Below, piece by piece: positions 2,723-30,063 of a DNA stretch of 30,829 nt. Position numbers and translations under genes: made by a program. Numbering within the stretch: position 1 is the stretch's first letter; every line of letters begins with the position of its first letter. Below the pieces are notes generated by a model, which saw nothing but the letters and a program-made list of their open reading frames with translations, ran no database searches and had not been told where the DNA came from. The stretch covers positions 1 to 30,829 of the forward strand of contig JAQURU010000001.1 in NCBI GenBank assembly GCA_028715435.1. The letters run 5' to 3'. Source of the stretch: Minisyncoccota bacterium. Its GTDB lineage: Bacteria; Patescibacteriota; Minisyncoccia; Minisyncoccales; CG1-02-41-26.

Positions 2723-4384
2723 TTGACAAATAAAATGCGAAAAATTCCGGCAATTTTTGTATTTGTAATTTTTATTCTTTTTGGAGCGGCTTTATTGGCT
2801 AAGCTTTTTTATTTACAGGTTATGAAAGGGGAATATTATGGGGCATTGGCTTTGGGCCAACAGATACCAGTTCAGGAAGGAAACACCAAACGGGGTGATA
2901 TATTTTTTAGCGATGGCGCAACTTTATTAGCCAAAACAAAAGTAAAGCCAATTGTTTATATTTTTCCCAATAAAATCTCAACTGAAAATCAAGAAGCAGT
3001 GACCAGAGAATTAAGCCAAATTTTGGGAGAAAGCTTGGCCACAACAACAGCTGAATTAGCTGTGGGCGCAACAATTAAGAAAGATCTCACAGAGGAACAA
3101 TTTAAAGAGCTTAAACAAAGAAATCTAAAAGGAATCTATGTTGACGAAGAACTTGTAAGAGTTTATCCTCAAAAAAAATTTGCCGGGCATTTGGTCGGTT
3201 TTGTTAATAGTGCAGGCCAGGGCCAATACGGGGTGGAAGGGTTTTATGATTCTGTTTTAAAAGGCGAACAAGTTTTAAAAGGAAACAGTTCGGTTTTTTC
3301 AATTTTAGCTTCGGCTTTTAAAGAGCCTCCAAGTAATGAGAGCGTCAGTAAAAGCGGAAAAGGTATACAGCTCACTATTGACTATAATATTCAATACGAA
3401 GCAGAAAAATTGTTAGAACAAGCTGCTCATGATTGGCAAATGGACTCTGGCCAAATTATCGTGCAGGAGCCCTCAACCGGTAAAATTTTAGCAATGGCTG
3501 TCTGGCCAGACTTTGACCCAAATCTCTATGCTAGCGAGGAGCAAGTGTCTTCTTTTACCAACCCTGCCCTACAGGCTTTATTTGAACCAGGTTCGGTTTT
3601 TAAGCCAATTACAATGGCCGCAGGCCTTGAGGAAAATTTAGTTGCTCCAGAAACAAGGTTCACGGATACGGGCGAGGTAAACGTGGGAGGGCCTTCAATT
3701 TATAACTTTGCCAAAAAAGCTTGGGGCGAGCAAAGCATGGTAGGGGTTTTGGAAAACTCTATTAACACTGGAATGGTTTTTGTGGAGCAAAAATTGGGCA
3801 AAAATCTTTTTTTAAAGTATGCTCAAAGTTTTGGCTTATTTAAAAAAACTGAAGTTGACCTAGCTGGGGAGATTTATTCTGCTAATGAAACCTTAAAAAA
3901 GGGCTATCCAAGGGATTTTGCTGTGGCGAGCTTTGGCCAAGGTATTCAAATAACTTCTTTGCAATTATTAAAAGCAATATCAGCAATTGCCAACAAGGGT
4001 TTGATGATGAGGCCGTATATTGCCCAAGCGAAAGACCCCACTTTAGAAGGCCAAGTTATTTCAGAAAACACAGCTGCCCAGCTATCAGCTATGATGGTTT
4101 CAGTTGTGGAAAACGGGGGCGGGAGAAGGGCAAAAGTTCCGGGCTATTTAGTGGCAGGCAAAACTGGAACAGCTCAAATTCCAAAGCCAACAGGAGGTTA
4201 TTATGAAGACAGAACAATTCAAAGCTTTATTGGGTTTGCCCCAGCCAACCAGCCAAGGTTTATTATTTTAGTTCGATTAGATAATCCCAAGCAATCAGAT
4301 GCAGCCAGCTCTTGCGCTGCGCCAATATTTGGCCAATTGGCCAAATATATAATTGATCTTTGGCAAGTCCCTCCAACTCAGTAA
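2723..4384 (+). CDS. ftsI: Class B penicillin-binding protein (FtsI/PBP2-3 family)
   Basis: N-terminal TM, RGDIF dimerisation motif, EPGSVFK (SxxK), SIN (SxN), GKTGTAQ (KTG). Confidence 0.9.
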   Translation: MTNKMRKIPAIFVFVIFILFGAALLAKLFYLQVMKGEYYGALALGQQIPVQEGNTKRGDIFFSDGATLLAKTKVKPIVYIFPNKISTENQEAVTRELSQILGESLATTTAELAVGATIKKDLTEEQFKELKQRNLKGIYVDEELVRVYPQKKFAGHLVGFVNSAGQGQYGVEGFYDSVLKGEQVLKGNSSVFSILASAFKEPPSNESVSKSGKGIQLTIDYNIQYEAEKLLEQAAHDWQMDSGQIIVQEPSTGKILAMAVWPDFDPNLYASEEQVSSFTNPALQALFEPGSVFKPITMAAGLEENLVAPETRFTDTGEVNVGGPSIYNFAKKAWGEQSMVGVLENSINTGMVFVEQKLGKNLFLKYAQSFGLFKKTEVDLAGEIYSANETLKKGYPRDFAVASFGQGIQITSLQLLKAISAIANKGLMMRPYIAQAKDPTLEGQVISENTAAQLSAMMVSVVENGGGRRAKVPGYLVAGKTGTAQIPKPTGGYYEDRTIQSFIGFAPANQPRFIILVRLDNPKQSDAASSCAAPIFGQLAKYIIDLWQVPPTQ

Positions 4385-4389
4385 AAGAT

Positions 4390-4418
4390 TTGACAAAAAT
4401 TTCCATATTTGCTAAATT
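4390..4418 (+). promoter_or_regulatory. sigma70 promoter, leader unit A
   Basis: TTGACA-N17-TAAATT. Confidence 0.6.
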
Positions 4419-4430
4419 AAAATTAAAGAT

Positions 4431-4523
4431 ATGAAAAAGGTTAGCCAAAAACAATTCCTTGGTTTATTGTTGGTTTTGTTATCAAAACCCCAAGCTGGGA
4501 AGGTTTTTGGCAATAAAAAGTAG
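4431..4523 (+). CDS. Putative leader peptide A (30 aa, MKKVSQKQFLGLLLVLLSKPQAGKVFGNKK)
   Basis: ATG 12 nt after the -10 element. Its 3' codons are complementary to the 5' arm of the downstream terminator. Confidence 0.55.
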   Translation: MKKVSQKQFLGLLLVLLSKPQAGKVFGNKK

Positions 4524-4547
4524 ATTAGAAAGTAATTAAAAAACTTC

Positions 4548-4579
4548 AAACCTCCCCAGTGCTGGGGAGGTTTTGTTTT
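4548..4579 (+). terminator. Attenuator terminator A
   Basis: AAACCTCCCCAG-TG-CTGGGGAGGTTT followed by a T-tract. Confidence 0.85.
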
Positions 4580-4607
4580 CTGAACGTTAATAATAAGGAG
4601 ACGGAAA

Positions 4608-5054
4608 ATGAAAGAAATTTTAGAAGTTATTGTAAGAAGAGTTGGCGAAAGAATATTCCGTGCGCCAGTTCAAGTTGTTAATTTAGAAAATAATACCTGG
4701 GTTATTGAATCAGAGGGAGTTTTCTTAACGGGCAAACTTTATCCTAGCCCCATCACCGCAACCCTTCTTATTTTTGAGGTAATTAAAGTGCAAGGCAAAC
4801 GAGAGCTGGTCGGCCTTGAATTTACCATGGAAACCGTTGAGGAAGCTATAAAGCAAGCAGGAATAACAGTATTCCATACTTCTCCGGCTGCCCTTTATGT
4901 TTCTAATCCAGAAGAAGGTGATACATGGACCATTGAATTTGAGGGCATTGCTGTGACAGGTAGGGTTTGCCCTGTTAATAAAGACCAGGTAACTTTTAAG
5001 GTCATTAAGGCCGAAGGAAAGCGACAGTTAGTCGGTCTCAAATTCACCATATAA
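4608..5054 (+). CDS. Hypothetical protein with a duplicated beta-rich domain
   Basis: SD AAGGAG, with two homologous halves (TWVIESEGVFLTGKLYP...FEVIKVQGKRELVGLEFT / TWTIEFEGIAVTGRVCP...FKVIKAEGKRQLVGLKFT). Confidence 0.8.
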   Translation: MKEILEVIVRRVGERIFRAPVQVVNLENNTWVIESEGVFLTGKLYPSPITATLLIFEVIKVQGKRELVGLEFTMETVEEAIKQAGITVFHTSPAALYVSNPEEGDTWTIEFEGIAVTGRVCPVNKDQVTFKVIKAEGKRQLVGLKFTI

Positions 5055-5130
5055 AAGCGGGAGGCTGAAGGGGCCATAACCCCACAAAGCATGGCTTTTG
5101 CTACCACAATTGCAAAAGCCCCCGCGCTTG

Positions 5131-5190
5131 TCCCGTAGAGAATTTTAACTTTTGGCTTTGCTGATAAGCAGTTAAAATTCTTCTACGGGA
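5131..5190. repeat. Long inverted repeat (REP-like or terminator)
   Basis: TCCCGTAGAGAATTTTAACT-19 nt-AGTTAAAATTCTTCTACGGGA (one bulge) followed by TTATTTTTTT. Confidence 0.8.
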
Positions 5191-5211
5191 TTATTTTTTT
5201 AGTGCAGGGGA

Positions 5212-5239
5212 TTGACAAGCAATTTTAGATGAGTATTAT
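5212..5239 (+). promoter_or_regulatory. sigma70 promoter, leader unit B
   Basis: TTGACA-N16-TATTAT. Confidence 0.65.
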
Positions 5240-5251
5240 AAATTTATAGTT

Positions 5252-5362
5252 ATGAAAACTTCGAAAACGCAAATTAACCAAAAAAGAGATTTCTTTTTCT
5301 TTTATTTCTTTTTTACCCCGATGAGGGAGGTTAGTTTGAGTTTTCTAAAAGCTAAAAAATAA
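5252..5362 (+). CDS. Putative leader peptide B (36 aa, MKTSKTQINQKRDFFFFYFFFTPMREVSLSFLKAKK)
   Basis: ATG 12 nt after the -10 element, a Phe run, and a 3' part complementary to the terminator 5' arm. Confidence 0.6.
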   Translation: MKTSKTQINQKRDFFFFYFFFTPMREVSLSFLKAKK

Positions 5363-5388
5363 AAGAAAATTAAATTTAGAAATTTCAC

Positions 5389-5427
5389 ACCAGCTTCTCT
5401 CATTGTGAGAAAGCTGGTTTTATTTTT
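5389..5427 (+). terminator. Attenuator terminator B
   Basis: ACCAGCTTCTCTCA-TTG-TGAGAAAGCTGGT followed by TTTATTTTT. Confidence 0.85.
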
Positions 5428-5469
5428 GCTCATTAAATTATTAATAGTTTTTAGAAGGGAGGTGTTTGC

Positions 5470-5655
5470 TTGATACTGATTTCAAGGCGGCAAGTCCATA
5501 TTTTTCAGGATATCAAAGATACCTTGGAAAGTCATAGGATAAAATATACAACAATTGCCACGGACAATTGTTTTATATTTTTGGTTTCAAATAACGAACG
5601 TTTGTATGCTGTGTTTGAATTACTTGACCTACTATCCGAAAGAATAGTCATATAG
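5470..5655 (+). CDS. Hypothetical protein (61 aa)
   Basis: Strong SD GGGAGGTG before TTG, directly after terminator B. Confidence 0.7.
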   Translation: MILISRRQVHIFQDIKDTLESHRIKYTTIATDNCFIFLVSNNERLYAVFELLDLLSERIVI

Positions 5656-5667
5656 GGGGGTTTTAGG

Positions 5668-5868
5668 ATGAGGAAAGAATTGTATACGGAAAGACTTTTA
5701 CGTGAAAAAGAAGAAAAGATTAGAAAAAGCCGGAGTCCGTTGCCAAGCTTAAGTAAGCCGGGCGTTGACGAGTTTGGAGCGCCACTTGATGTCTATCAAA
5801 AAAGCTACGAAACCCGTAAAGATCTTTGGAGGGCAGAGGTAAAAGATGCAAAACTTAACAATAAATAG
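5668..5868 (+). CDS. Hypothetical basic protein (66 aa)
   Basis: ORF follows the previous one by 12 nt with a purine-rich upstream sequence, and is followed by a hairpin. Confidence 0.65.
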   Translation: MRKELYTERLLREKEEKIRKSRSPLPSLSKPGVDEFGAPLDVYQKSYETRKDLWRAEVKDAKLNNK

Positions 5869-5883
5869 TTAAGTTAAAATTCA

Positions 5884-5913
5884 AGGGTAAAAGCACGTTT
5901 ATGCTTTTACCCT
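5884..5913. terminator. Perfect 12-bp hairpin closing unit B and abutting the next -35
   Basis: AGGGTAAAAGCA-CGTTTA-TGCTTTTACCCT. Confidence 0.65.
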
Positions 5914-5940
5914 TGACAGTAATTTTTATTGCGGTATCAT
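5913..5940 (+). promoter_or_regulatory. sigma70 promoter, leader unit C
   Basis: TTGACA-N16-TATCAT. Confidence 0.7.
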
Positions 5941-5952
5941 AAAATAATAAAT

Positions 5953-6036
5953 ATGAAATTCGCTCAAATTAAATCCCAATTTACTAAATACACTATTAAC
6001 TCTGGAAGGGAGATTGGTTTGAGCTTTGAAAACTAA
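5953..6036 (+). CDS. Putative leader peptide C (27 aa, MKFAQIKSQFTKYTINSGREIGLSFEN)
   Basis: ATG 12 nt after the -10 element. REIGLSF is homologous to REVSLSF of leader B. Confidence 0.6.
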   Translation: MKFAQIKSQFTKYTINSGREIGLSFEN

Positions 6037-6053
6037 TTCTTAAAACTTCAGAC

Positions 6054-6085
6054 CAGCCCCTCTTCTAAAAAGACGGGCTGTTTTT
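6054..6085 (+). terminator. Attenuator terminator C
   Basis: CAGCCCCTCTT-CTAA-AAGACGGGCTG followed by TTTTTG. Confidence 0.8.
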
Positions 6086-6142
6086 GTTCTGTTTTTGCTA
6101 TTTAACAATTTATATTCACCTTTTAATAACAGGAGGTTTTTT

Positions 6143-6340
6143 ATGGAAGAAATCAAGATTTCAAAAGCATTTCCAAAAGAAGAAAAAGAGCAAATAGAAG
6201 GAAAAATAAAAAAAGCAGCAGGCGAATGCCACTGTCATAACATTAAAATTAACTTCGGCGGTTGCTTTACAAGTATTTTAGTAGAGAATCACAAGACCAA
6301 AGATCTTCGTGCAAAACTCAAGGAAAAAGGAATAATATAA
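6143..6340 (+). CDS. Hypothetical protein (65 aa, CHCH/C motif)
   Basis: SD AGGAGG before ATG 6143. The ORF track start at 6095 is probably too early. Confidence 0.75.
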   Translation: MEEIKISKAFPKEEKEQIEGKIKKAAGECHCHNIKINFGGCFTSILVENHKTKDLRAKLKEKGII

Positions 6341-6358
6341 AAGAAAAGGAGGATTAAG

Positions 6359-6556
6359 ATGATTTCTTTGGACGATATTGGCGGAACCGAACAAGTCTTA
6401 GTTTACGAACAATTGTGCCGACAGAGTTCAGCGGTTCAAAAAAAGCTGAAATCAGCTGAAGTTAAAAACGATGTTGATGGTAAAAAAAAGTGGAAATATC
6501 ATCTTGCATCAACCCAACGAGGTATGTTGAGAGTTTTGTCAAGCATGCCTTTATAG
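6359..6556 (+). CDS. Hypothetical protein (65 aa)
   Basis: SD AGGAGG, followed by a terminator. Confidence 0.75.
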   Translation: MISLDDIGGTEQVLVYEQLCRQSSAVQKKLKSAEVKNDVDGKKKWKYHLASTQRGMLRVLSSMPL

Positions 6557-6568
6557 AACGATTATAAT

Positions 6569-6616
6569 AAACAGCGGTTAATTGATGGCCTGTGAGCACA
6601 TCAACCGCTGTTTTTA
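6569..6616 (+). terminator. Intrinsic terminator
   Basis: AAACAGCGGTT...AACCGCTGTTTTT. Confidence 0.75.
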
Positions 6617-6656
6617 CTTGTTTAAAAACCCATTTTTGCTACAATAGGTTTGATTT

Positions 6657-6729
6657 GGTCTTATCGTCTAGAGGCCTAGGACTCATGATTCTCAATCATG
6701 CAACCCGGGTTCGAATCCCGGTAAGACCG
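6657..6729 (+). tRNA. tRNA-Glu(CTC), CCA not encoded
   Basis: GGTCTTA/TAAGACC acceptor stem, CATGA-TTCTCAA-TCATG anticodon arm, CCGGG-TTCGAAT-CCCGG T arm. Confidence 0.95.
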
Positions 6730-6734
6730 CCGTT

Positions 6735-7796
6735 ATGTTAGAAACAATTATTATAATTTTATTGATTGCGCTTTTCGGCGGATTTTTAGGCTTGATTTTT
6801 TATTTAAAAAAGCAAATTGCCAGCGTGGGCCGAAAAACCGATGGGCAAAATCAGGATTTTGTTTTAAATGTTTTAAAAAACGATTTGAAAGAAATAAAAG
6901 AAGAAATAAAAGAAACCAGAGAAAAAAACTCATTGTCAATGGAAAGCCAGCTAAAAGAAAGCGCTAAAATTGTGCGGGAAGTTACTGAAAAACTAACCAA
7001 ACTTGATGAAACCAACAAGCAAGTGGTGGGGTTTGCTGAACAGCTTCAATCATTGGAAAATATTTTGAAAAATCCCAAACAAAGAGGTATTTTAGGAGAG
7101 TATTCTTTAGAAACGCTTTTAAAAAGCGGGTTCACGCCCAAAAATTACAAAATGCAGTATGAGTTTAAAGACGGGCAAATTGTGGACGCAGTTTTGTTTA
7201 TTGGGGAAAAAATAATTCCTATTGACTCCAAATTTTCTTTGGAAAATTACAATAAAATTGTTACAGAAAAAGACCAAGCCAGAAAAGAGCAATTAGAAAA
7301 GGCCTTTAAGCAGGATTTAAAAAATCGCATTGATGAAACAGCAAAATATATCAGGCCAGAAGAGGGCACTTTTGATTTTGCTTTAATGTTTATACCAGCT
7401 GAAGGCATTTATTATGATTTAATGGTTAATGAAATCGGGGCCATTAAAGCTAATACCAGGGATTTGCTGGAATACGCTGTTTGGGAGAAAAATGTTCATA
7501 TTGTATCCCCCAATTCCTTTTACGCTTATTTGCAAACTATTTTACAGGGCTTGCGGGCTTTTACAATAGAGGATTCAGCTAAGGAAATCAAAAAGAATGT
7601 TGAGATATTGGGCAAGCATTTGGGAGCATTTGACAGTTATATGCAAAAATTAGGCGGAAATTTAGGGGCAACCATTAATTGTTATAACACTGCTTATAAA
7701 GAGCTTGGCAAAATTGACAAAGATGTGGTAAAAATCACCGAAGGAGAACGCCAAATAGAGCCTTTGGCGATTGACAAACCCAGCGTTTTAGATTAA
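6735..7796 (+). CDS. rmuC: DNA recombination protein RmuC family
   Basis: N-terminal TM and coiled coil, NPKQRGILGE, PIDSKFSLENY, FALMFIPAEGIY, VSPNSFYAYL. Confidence 0.93.
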   Translation: MLETIIIILLIALFGGFLGLIFYLKKQIASVGRKTDGQNQDFVLNVLKNDLKEIKEEIKETREKNSLSMESQLKESAKIVREVTEKLTKLDETNKQVVGFAEQLQSLENILKNPKQRGILGEYSLETLLKSGFTPKNYKMQYEFKDGQIVDAVLFIGEKIIPIDSKFSLENYNKIVTEKDQARKEQLEKAFKQDLKNRIDETAKYIRPEEGTFDFALMFIPAEGIYYDLMVNEIGAIKANTRDLLEYAVWEKNVHIVSPNSFYAYLQTILQGLRAFTIEDSAKEIKKNVEILGKHLGAFDSYMQKLGGNLGATINCYNTAYKELGKIDKDVVKITEGERQIEPLAIDKPSVLD

Positions 7797-10489: not shown

Positions 10490-10518
10490 ATTTTATCCCT
10501 TTCTCTTGACAGTGTCAA
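10490..10518 (-). promoter_or_regulatory. dnaB promoter (near-leaderless), with its -35 inside a palindrome
   Basis: Minus strand TTGACA (10518-10513)-N17-TAAAAT (10495-10490), 11 nt before the ATG. Confidence 0.7.
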
Positions 10519-10569
10519 TTGAAAGGAATATCATATCTCTTGACAGTGTCAATTGAAAGGAATATCATA
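10502..10569 (+). repeat. Exact 34-bp tandem duplication of a full sigma70 promoter
   Basis: TCTCTTGACAGTGTCAATTGAAAGGAATATCATA x2. Each copy is TTGACA-N17-TATCAT and contains the palindrome TTGACAGTGTCAA. Confidence 0.95.
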
Positions 10570-10608
10570 GCAATGGCAGAAGAGATAATTTGAATAATAA
10601 GTAATAAT

Positions 10609-10680
10609 ATGTTTGGAAAAACACAAAAACTGGCAAAAACTTACCAGCTTTTGCGTTTTTCTAACAATACGCTGCAATAA
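10609..10680 (+). CDS. Possible leader peptide (23 aa, MFGKTQKLAKTYQLLRFSNNTLQ)
   Basis: Short ORF between the duplicated promoter and a terminator, with its stop codon inside the hairpin. Confidence 0.35.
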   Translation: MFGKTQKLAKTYQLLRFSNNTLQ

Positions 10681-10696
10681 GGCAGCGTATTTTTTT
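10665..10696 (+). terminator. Intrinsic terminator or attenuator
   Basis: AATACGCTGC-AATAAG-GCAGCGTATT followed by TTTTT. Confidence 0.8.
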
Positions 10697-10727
10697 GGAC
10701 CTTAAAACCTTAAAAGTGGAGGGAAAA

Positions 10728-10868
10728 ATGCAGGAAAAGAAAGAAGTTCTTGATGTGTGGGAGCTTCTTCAAGCGCTTTTTCATTGCAAGCACGATTGCC
10801 CTGGAGTTTGCTTGGAGTGTTTATTTTTTGCTGTTGCTTTTTTAATCTGGCAACAACAGGGTAAATAA
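10728..10868 (+). CDS. Small Cys-rich hydrophobic protein (46 aa, MQEKKEVLDVWELLQALFHCKHDCPGVCLECLFFAVAFLIWQQQGK)
   Basis: SD GGAGGG before ATG. It is below the ORF-track size cutoff and more plausible than the antisense 61-aa ORF. Confidence 0.6.
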   Translation: MQEKKEVLDVWELLQALFHCKHDCPGVCLECLFFAVAFLIWQQQGK

Positions 10869-28302: not shown

Positions 28303-30063
28303 ATGGAGGAACAAAAAGAAAAAATAGGAAAAATTATAAAAGTAGCAGGGCCTTTAGTGGTGGCTAAAGGAATTGAAGATGCTCAAATGTATGAGGTGGT
28401 CAAGGTTGGCAATGAAAAAATTATTGGAGAAGTTATTAGAATAAAAGGCAATGATGTTTATATCCAAGTATATGAAGAAACATCAGGTATTGGCCCTGGA
28501 GAGCCGGTTTACTTAACGGGTGATCCTTTAACAGTTGAATTAGGGCCTGGTTTGATTGCTAATATTTACGATGGCATTCAAAGGCCACTGAAAGATTTAG
28601 CCAAAAAATCAGGAAATTTTATTGCTAGGGGCATTGAAAGCATGGCTTTGGACAAAGAAAAAGAATGGATTTTTGTTCCCCAAAAAAAAGAGGGTGATGA
28701 AATTGAGCCTGGCGACATTTTAGGAGAAGTGAAAGAAACTGAATTGTTAAGCCACAAAATTATGGCCCCTCCTTTTTTTAAAAAAGGCATTATAAGTTCA
28801 ATTGTTCCTAAGGGCAATTACACGATTTCTCAAACAATCGCTGAAGTAAAAACGGAAAGTAATAAAAAAATAAATATTTGCTTAAGTCATAAATGGCCCA
28901 TTAGAAACCCCAGGCCGATTAACAAAAAATTAACCCCTTCTTTAGGGTTAATAACTGGGCAAAGGGTTATTGATATGTTTTTTCCAATTGCCAAAGGGGG
29001 AGCGGGCTGTGTGCCAGGGCCTTTTGGGTCGGGTAAAACAGTGGTTCAGCACCAATTAGCAAAATGGTCGGATGCTGATGTGATTATTTTTGTTGGTTGC
29101 GGGGAAAGGGGAAATGAAATGACCGATTTGCTTATGGAGTTTCCTGAATTAAGCGACCCCAAAACCGGCCGGCCTTTAATGGAAAGAACTGTTTTGGTAG
29201 CCAACACTTCTAATATGCCTGTGGCGGCCCGCGAGGCCTCGGTTTACACAGGCATAACCATAGCTGAATATTTCAGGGATATGGGATATTCAGTGGTCTT
29301 GTTGGCTGATTCCACCTCAAGGTGGGCAGAAGCCTTAAGAGAAATTTCCGGCAGATTAGAAGAAATGCCAGGAGACGAGGGCTACCCAGCTTATCTTGGT
29401 TCTCGAACTGCGGCTTTTTATGAAAGGGCAGGATATGTACAATGCCTAGGACAAGATAAAAGAGAGGGATTTTTAACCGTTGTGGGGGCAGTTTCCCCTC
29501 CAGGGGGAGATTTATCAGAACCAGTTACTCAAAATACCCTAAGGGTAACCAAAGTTTTTTGGGCATTAGACGCTTCTTTAGCTTACAAGCGCCATTTTCC
29601 AGCTATCAATTGGTTAAACAGCTATTCTTTATACGAAGATAATTTAAAAGATTTTTTTGATAAGCAAGGCGGAGCAAACTTTACTGAATTTCGGAAAAAA
29701 GCAATGGCTATTTTGCAGAAAGAAGCTGAACTGCAAGAAATCGTCCGTTTAGTTGGCATTGAGGCCTTATCTCAAAAAGATCAGTTTTTGCTTGAAGTTA
29801 GCCGCATTATTAGAGAAGATTTATTGCATCAAAATGCTTTTTTGGATGTTGATTCTTTTACTTCTTTAAAAAAGCAATACTTAATGGTAAAAGCAATTAT
29901 TGACATTTTCAAAAAAGGCGAGGAAGCTATTAGCCAAGGGAAAACTGCTAAGGATATTTTAAGCCCGTCTTTAAAAGATAAAATTTCTAAAATGAAATTT
30001 ATCCAAGAACAGGGCATAGAGCAGTTTGTTTTGCTTACGCAGGAAATAGAGCAAATTATTTAA
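28303..30063 (+). CDS. atpA: V/A-type ATPase catalytic subunit A (no intein)
   Basis: [48 protein letters not shown]. Confidence 0.98.

Follow-up and report, generated by a model that had tools for sequence, protein, structure and literature searches.

Three tandem units with the features of leader-peptide attenuators precede orphan small-protein genes in a Minisyncoccota genome

Introduction

Regulation in bacteria of the candidate phyla radiation is almost unknown. A stretch of DNA from a Minisyncoccota bacterium (positions 1 to 30,829 of contig JAQURU010000001.1, assembly GCA_028715435.1; these 30,829 nucleotides are called the window here) contains three short units, A, B and C, that follow one another between ftsI and rmuC. 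Each unit is composed of a promoter, a small open reading frame (ORF) and a strong terminator, and stands in front of one or two further ORFs, its cargo, that encode orphan small proteins. The locus thus raises a simple question: what decides whether transcription stops at these terminators or goes on into the cargo genes?

An earlier note, made from the letters of the sequence, had read the three units as attenuators of the trp type, in which the position of a ribosome on the small ORF chooses between terminator and antiterminator. In this work we analysed the units, their orthologues and more distant copies by sequence comparison. We conclude that A, B and C are most probably three paralogous ribosome-dependent (leader-peptide) transcription attenuators. 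Three lines of evidence support this reading and with it the attenuation logic first proposed: the leader ORFs are kept open, the alternative RNA helices covary, and in relatives the codon run of a leader matches the pathway encoded behind it.

Results

Three copies of one architecture

The units are tandem paralogues, all on the plus strand (A, 4390-4580; B, 5212-5427; C, 5913-6092), and lie between ftsI (2723-4384, a penicillin-binding protein by Pfam) and a tRNA gene that is followed by rmuC and rplU. Each starts with a promoter in which TTGACA is separated by 17 nucleotides (nt) from TG-TAAATT in A (4390-4418), and by 16 nt from TATTAT in B (5212-5239) or TATCAT in C (5913-5940); in a promoter scan these were the top three sigma-70-type promoter-like sites in 4000-7000. 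The leader ATGs, at 4431, 5252 and 5953, are all exactly 12 nt past the -10, so that the 5' untranslated region of the leader mRNA would be only a few nt long, and the leader mRNAs have no Shine-Dalgarno sequence (SD). The leader ORF of unit A (4431-4523) has 30 codons, with a Leu-rich stretch, LGLLLVLL, at 4458-4481; that of unit B (5252-5362) has 36 codons, with a Phe/Tyr run, FFFFYFFF, at 5291-5314; and that of unit C (5953-6036) has 27 codons, with a Thr-rich stretch, FTKYTI, at 5980-5997. The terminator hairpins that follow have energies of -14 to -18 kcal/mol and T-rich tails. The unit A terminator (4548-4573) was picked up by a terminator scan, and hairpin folds gave -16 kcal/mol for unit B (5390-5417) and -14 kcal/mol for unit C (6054-6080). 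The terminator arms vary among orthologues yet stay complementary, and between the three units they have likewise diverged with the pairing kept. Downstream of each unit lie SD-bearing orphan ORFs, each set with its own terminator. Promoters, start-codon spacing, leader ORFs of 27-36 codons, a common lead-in, terminators and downstream ORFs are therefore all present where the earlier note had placed them.

The strict form of the lead-in, AAAYTTCANACC, occurs four times on the two strands of the 694-kb genome, three of these occurrences being in A, B and C, and a whole-genome search for the full architecture (a promoter, an ATG 9-14 nt past the -10, an ORF of 10-50 codons and a terminator within 110 nt) returned five sites, three of which are again the units. 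The rarity of the lead-in and the specificity of the architecture search indicate that the three-unit pattern is real and not due to chance. A 13-codon candidate at 29566 on the minus strand, proposed by a heuristic architecture scan, looks spurious. A possible fourth 'leader' (10540-10700) lacks a codon run and is no relative of A, B and C; the region around it (10500-10700) contains a duplicated promoter, ORFs of 6 and 23 codons and a terminator, with a small ORF at 10728 downstream.

Mutually exclusive helices supported by covariation

Each unit can form three helices that exclude one another: 1:2, an anti-antiterminator; 2:3, the antiterminator; and 3:4, the terminator. In unit A, region 1 (the 5' strand of the anti-antiterminator, 4444-4459) pairs with 4497-4511, and this pairing shows a compensatory series, GCC/GGC, ATC/GGT and ATC/GAT. 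Region 2 (4495-4511) is common to helices 1:2 and 2:3 and is invariant in four genomes, and region 3 with the terminator and U tract occupies 4541-4580, including the lead-in and the terminator 5' arm (4548-4558). In unit B, region 1 (5263-5279) pairs with 5329-5345, region 2, the 5' strand of the antiterminator, is at 5323-5349, and region 3 with the terminator is at 5375-5427 (region 3 itself 5375-5401, U tract 5418-5427). In unit C, region 1 (5961-5977) has region 2 (6006-6032) as its partner, and region 3, terminator and U tract are at 6038-6092 (region 3 itself 6038-6064). The duplex energies of helices 1:2, 2:3 and 3:4 are -21.1, -17.6 and -23.9 kcal/mol in A, -19.8, -26.8 and -17.9 kcal/mol in B, and -20.8, -19.6 and -15.1 kcal/mol in C. 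The pairing first noticed between the end of leader ORF A and its terminator (4495-4506 with 4548-4559) is confirmed at 11 of 12 positions, and the corresponding pairings in B and C are antiterminators with 24 and 22 of 27 positions paired, counting G-U. A competing upstream hairpin had also been proposed, and a competitor does exist; however, the main one is not local but the long-range helix 1:2, formed by codons 4-10 or so with region 2 and conserved with covariation. Compared with helix 1:2 the local AAAACC/GGTTTT hairpin matters less; judged by eye, this hairpin is compatible with the wobble changes in the orthologues.

Helix 1:2 together with the terminator is the minimum-energy fold in all 13 orthologous copies. 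With a MAFFT alignment of these 13 copies RNAalifold recovered no more than seven terminator pairs, the alignment being too poor, and covariation was tested instead on an alignment of the B and C copies with hand-set helices. In this alignment of nine sequences pairing reaches 92% in helix 1:2 and 85% in helix 2:3; the latter has five compensatory pairs, a result equalled by none of 500 shuffles. In a 29-sequence alignment helix 2:3 is 88.5% paired, with compensatory changes in 18 of its 27 pairs, a pairing figure that is biased upward because the alignment came from a covariance model built on this very helix. Helix 1:2 is outside that model, and in the same 29 sequences it is 85.8% paired, with seven compensatory pairs and 21 compensated cells, again as good as in none of 500 shuffles; slid controls gave 24-62% pairing. 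Mutually exclusive helices of this kind, supported by covariation, are what is expected of a leader-peptide attenuator.

Folding with the ribosome footprint masked was also consistent with a switch. The nascent RNA, ending at the terminator loop, was folded with 30 nt masked to represent the ribosome. When the ribosomal A site was placed on codons up to the run (codons 1-15 in A, 1-20 in B and 1-15 in C), 9-12 nt of the terminator 5' arm were held in the antiterminator; when the ribosome was placed over region 2, the antiterminator was lost. The predicted behaviour of the nascent RNA agrees with the classical model.

Leader reading frames and codon runs

Orthologues of each unit in three genomes of the same genus keep the leader ORF open, and unit B does so in another genus as well. 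Altogether the leader ORFs, whose translation is predicted, are open in 13 orthologous copies, in which the indels are of 3 nt and in frame. Leader ORF A, open in four genomes, shows in-frame indels, TTA/TTG swaps and a TCA-to-AGC change that keeps Ser, and the Phe/Tyr run of leader ORF B is kept in five genomes with TTT/TTC swaps. In a DNA search of 61 related genomes the leaders matched at 72-82% identity in the three genomes of the same genus, whereas the downstream genes did not match; leader B was also matched in another genus. Synonymous sites in adjoining genes are saturated (dS>1) when these genomes are compared, yet the leaders are still 77-82% identical, and this conservation points to a strong constraint on the leaders at the nucleotide level.

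The constraint bears unequally on the peptide. Over the whole leader ORFs the third-position excess is modest (24/34/43 for the three codon positions), and peptide conservation is confined to the run and to the ends constrained by RNA pairing. Across the matches, an N-terminal M-K-S-Q-T-N-like stretch corresponds to region 1 and a C-terminal K-E-V-(S/G)-L-S-F-L-like stretch to region 2, while the middle is interchangeable: Phe runs, Phe/Tyr alternations, mixed aromatic stretches, Leu runs, WW, CCC, or stretches rich in Thr, Lys and Ser. In A and B the run lies in the loop between regions 1 and 2, a position that would free the antiterminator if a ribosome stopped there; this is less clear for C. 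In several copies region 2 contains the stop codon or is read in another frame, which indicates that region 2 is conserved as RNA. Nearly all the other matches of the covariance model have an ATG at the aligned position, usually 9-12 nt past the -10 where a promoter is evident. A short 5' ORF, predicted to be translated, is thus present in A, B and C as in the wider family.

Genes preceded by the leaders in relatives

One comparison is with a genome of the same genus, G001. There the orthologue of leader B heads a 73-codon ORF followed by genes for EPSP synthase, shikimate kinase, chorismate synthase (in the order aroA-aroK-aroC) and a class IV aminotransferase, and the operon continues with an ORF like chorismate mutase (named by eye) and a fusion of prephenate dehydrogenase with a dehydratase-ACT protein (tyrA/pheA). 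In a genome of the same genus the Leu leader, of the unit A type, precedes an unknown protein and an M20 peptidase. The three leaders of G001 (L016:56-5573) are outside the ftsI-rmuC interval and adjoin genes for a TraG/VirD4-like coupling protein and an rve-type integrase, neighbours that suggest that the leader-controlled aro/phe/tyr operon may be on a mobile island.

In other relatives leaders with aromatic runs are found upstream of DAHP synthase (four genomes), of EPSP synthase with chorismate synthase, of two aminotransferases with the prephenate dehydrogenase/dehydratase fusion, and of DeoC/LacD-type aldolases (four genomes), which, we infer, start an alternative shikimate route. A leader with WW precedes trpB-trpA. 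A further leader (L052:7699-7905), with three consecutive Trp codons, the same short promoter spacing and a terminator, is followed by a 58-amino-acid (aa) ORF and by trpB and trpA; it belongs to a different RNA subtype that the covariance model misses. More than any other result, the agreement between the identity of the run and the downstream pathway in these relatives argues that what is sensed is translation of the run.

The same comparison bears on another explanation, namely that each unit is a self-contained small gene whose peptide or small RNA acts in trans, the cargo being expressed independently or by leakage. It is true that promoter and terminator are complete in each unit, that conservation is higher in the leaders than in the cargo, and that there is a precedent in the RNA rnTrpL and the peptide peTrpL of Sinorhizobium meliloti (PMC6614838, PMC7298713). 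Nevertheless we regard this explanation as unlikely, because none of the ten promoter-like sites listed for 4000-7000 is on the plus strand in the intervals between terminators and cargo (4581-4607, 5428-5469 and 6093-6142), because a conserved antiterminator that sequesters the terminator 5' arm would be purposeless in a simple small gene, and because leaders of the same family stand directly upstream of biosynthetic operons in relatives. A role in trans could exist in addition to control in cis.

An RNA family outside Rfam

The covariance-model search suggested by the earlier note found both further copies and the covariation in helices 1:2 and 2:3 described above. Within the family of the window's genome the model has matches in 17 of 39 genomes, spread over 11 of 28 genera. 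Of about 148 genomes that represent other families in the order, 10 have matches; about 145 sampled genomes from other orders of the class have none. The relatives with matches are Patescibacteria known as metagenome-assembled genomes, including a Candidatus Gribaldobacteria genome. In the genome of the window itself (G000, 95% complete) the model finds only A, B and C. Elsewhere the matches are often clustered, with seven on one contig of genome G030. That genome has at least five leader units within 2 kb (L050:4393-6404), where a Leu/Val-rich leader and a Leu-run leader stand back to back with no gene between them, an arrangement of attenuators in series. Many leader promoters of other genera (in L050, L051, L052, L053, L054, L030, L064 and L065) carry TTTTCCACAG or TTATCCACA about 10 nt 5' of the -35; these DnaA box-like sequences are absent from units A, B and C.

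In a search of the window against Rfam the gathering score was reached by tRNAs only, and no family was found for A, B or C. Phe_leader (RF01859), with a gathering score of 55 bits, gave 37.3 bits for A and 25.5 bits for B; these sub-threshold scores reflect the generic shape of an attenuator, and we do not assign the units to that family. No Leu, Thr, His or Trp leader was matched at E<=10. The A/B/C RNA family is therefore new and uncatalogued in Rfam, as first supposed, and it is a variant of a classical mechanism. Full-text literature searches found no paper that joins leader peptide, attenuation and Patescibacteria or candidate phyla radiation.

The Rfam results also bear on the idea that a protein, an uncharged tRNA or a small ligand sets a terminator/antiterminator switch in which the small ORF is incidental. 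The conservation of regions 2 and 3 as RNA, with region 2 in different frames in some copies, and the want of a clear codon run in unit C, would suit such a switch. It would not account for an ATG at the aligned position in nearly all copies with a frame open into or through region 2, for indels that keep the frame, or for single-amino-acid runs that fall exactly in the variable loop and match the downstream pathway. Moreover, T-box, riboswitch and protein-binding leaders (PyrR, TRAP type) gave nothing in Rfam at E<=10 except a PyrR match of 20.5 bits (E=9). We thus consider a switch independent of the ribosome quite improbable.

Cargo genes and metabolic setting

Cargo A (4608-5054, plus strand, with SD) encodes a 148-aa orphan protein and has its own terminator at about 5128-5190. 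The protein is an internal tandem duplication of two repeats of about 70 aa, and it has one distant homologue among 5.8 billion clusters. Cargo B, also on the plus strand, consists of an ORF of 61 aa with a TTG start and SD (5470-5655) and one of 66 aa with SD (5668-5868), followed by a terminator at 5881-5916. This terminator is a hairpin of 15-16 bp that scores as a terminator on both strands, and the -35 TTGACA of the unit C promoter is located within its 3' arm. In cargo C there are two plus-strand ORFs of 65 aa, both with SD, the first at 6143-6340 and the second at 6359-6556; their terminator is at about 6573-6612. Another genus has a homologue of the second ORF, likewise preceded by the Thr-rich type of leader. 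Orthologues of the cargo ORFs are present with the same synteny in two genomes, and dN/dS is 0.13-0.36 (0.13-0.17 for cargo A), values that are rough as dS is saturated. The cargo ORFs seem to be genuine genes that evolve fast. For the 148-aa and 61-aa proteins, neither Pfam nor a homologue search nor the ESM Atlas yielded usable information on function.

The earlier note had seen no amino-acid biosynthesis in the sequence. With the enzymes of relatives as queries, tblastn found in this genome no aroA, aroK or aroC, no DAHP synthase, no DeoC-type aldolase, no TrpA or TrpB and no prephenate enzymes. Genes for an HMGL-like protein and a class I/II aminotransferase are present on contig C4 (8453-13782), and no leader of the A/B/C family was found near them. 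The lack of aromatic pathway genes, set beside the full aro/phe/tyr operon headed by the orthologous Phe leader in G001, could suggest that the leaders are relics of lost biosynthetic operons with no useful regulation left, a view that is most improbable given that promoter, ATG spacing, ORF, run and all helices are intact in the three genomes with the small-ORF arrangement, that conservation of the leaders far exceeds that of synonymous sites, which are saturated, that dN/dS of the cargo ORFs is low, and that one cargo family stands behind the same leader type in another genus.

Discussion

A model for units A, B and C

We propose that the leader-peptide attenuators of the window would work as follows. 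A near-leaderless transcript would start a few nt 5' of the ATG, and a ribosome would load once the 5' end emerges. With no stalled ribosome, region 1, made of early codons, would pair with region 2, made of the last codons. Regions 3 and 4 could then make the terminator, and transcription would end before the cargo; a ribosome running on over region 2 would lead to the same outcome. A ribosome stalled on the run, in the loop between regions 1 and 2, would hold region 1, so that region 2 could pair with region 3; this pairing would block the terminator and allow the cargo to be transcribed. The runs predict that Leu is sensed by A and Phe/Tyr by B, while the specificity of the Thr-rich C is uncertain. 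Low levels of charged tRNA would thus induce small proteins in a genome in which the aromatic pathway genes searched for are missing.

Several observations weigh against this model. At equilibrium the full-length leader RNA nearly always folds into the terminator, whatever is masked, and in B and C the antiterminator is more stable than helix 1:2, so that the switch would have to be kinetic. In unit A a ribosome at the stop codon leaves region 2 uncovered, according to a simple footprint model. Unit C offers only a Thr-rich stretch and no clean codon run. No RNA run is listed for the locus, which is carried only by DNA runs from a landfill metagenome. Finally, the cargo in this genome consists of orphan small proteins and not of genes in the pathway of the sensed amino acid, and the match between run and pathway rests on relatives, where it is seen for the Phe/Tyr and Trp leaders. 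Such a match is typical of classical attenuators; by analogy with whiB7, discussed below, it does not define the mechanism.

Comparison with known attenuators

The proposed mechanism is the one known from pheL/pheM, leuL and trpL of enterobacteria and from aroR of Corynebacterium. The layout is that of Escherichia coli pheL-pheA and pheM-pheST, where an ORF with Phe codons precedes alternative 1:2, 2:3 and 3:4 helices and an intrinsic terminator (PMC3082878, PMC11802643), and in relatives the same leader type heads genes of Phe/Tyr synthesis. The Patescibacteria units differ in that A and B are below the Rfam threshold for Phe_leader, in that their leader mRNA is near-leaderless, in that the leader ORF continues across region 2, whereas in the E. 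coli leaders it ends ahead of that region, and in that the cargo behind the Phe run is two orphan small proteins. Unit A resembles leuL, the leader of the E. coli leu operon (leuABCD), in having a run of Leu codons in the loop ahead of the antiterminator strand; here, however, the cargo is the 148-aa orphan protein and not leuABCD, and Rfam gave no Leu leader match. In Corynebacterium glutamicum, as far as the account of aroR in PMC11802643 goes, a Phe/Tyr leader peptide controls aroF (DAHP synthase) by ribosome stalling. The target gene is the same as in four related Patescibacteria genomes, but the phylum is another and aroR is a single unit compared with a paralogous family with swappable runs; the two are likened by description, not by sequence.

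The best functional analogy for the arrangement in the window is mycobacterial whiB7, in which an upstream ORF of biased amino-acid composition and a terminator sense starvation by stalling and control a stress gene that is not biosynthetic (PMC10274678). The whiB7 target is a known transcription factor and its upstream ORF is Ala-rich, compared with three units, different runs and orphan small-protein targets here. In S. meliloti the terminated leader RNA of trpL, rnTrpL, and its peptide peTrpL act in trans (PMC6614838, PMC7298713). This parallel makes roles of their own possible for leaders that are better conserved than their cargo.

Significance

The five orphan small proteins are probably made when particular amino acids run short, and this would be a first functional handle on them, relevant to an organism that obtains amino acids from outside. 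The earlier note had suggested a regulon sensing translation stress, which we likewise infer might exist. More specifically, and only tentatively, the genome may have retained its leader sensors, or recruited them, as a small regulon for amino-acid supply. Low levels of charged tRNA-Leu, low levels of charged tRNA-Phe/Tyr and a third signal would then each turn on a separate set of fast-evolving small proteins, perhaps for use in starvation or in interaction with a host; the abundant leader RNAs that end at the terminators, or the leader peptides, would perhaps act in trans, and the modular scaffold would be re-targeted by changing run and cargo.

More generally, the family implies tight coupling of transcription and translation from near-leaderless mRNAs in these organisms. 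The run would be a label, readable in the sequence (Leu, Phe/Tyr, Trp, Cys and others), of the signal that controls the downstream gene, and a conserved scaffold with exchangeable runs is a natural compact design for amino-acid-responsive switches. The most interesting point is the role of orphan cargo under such switches in a genome that is apparently without aromatic amino-acid synthesis.

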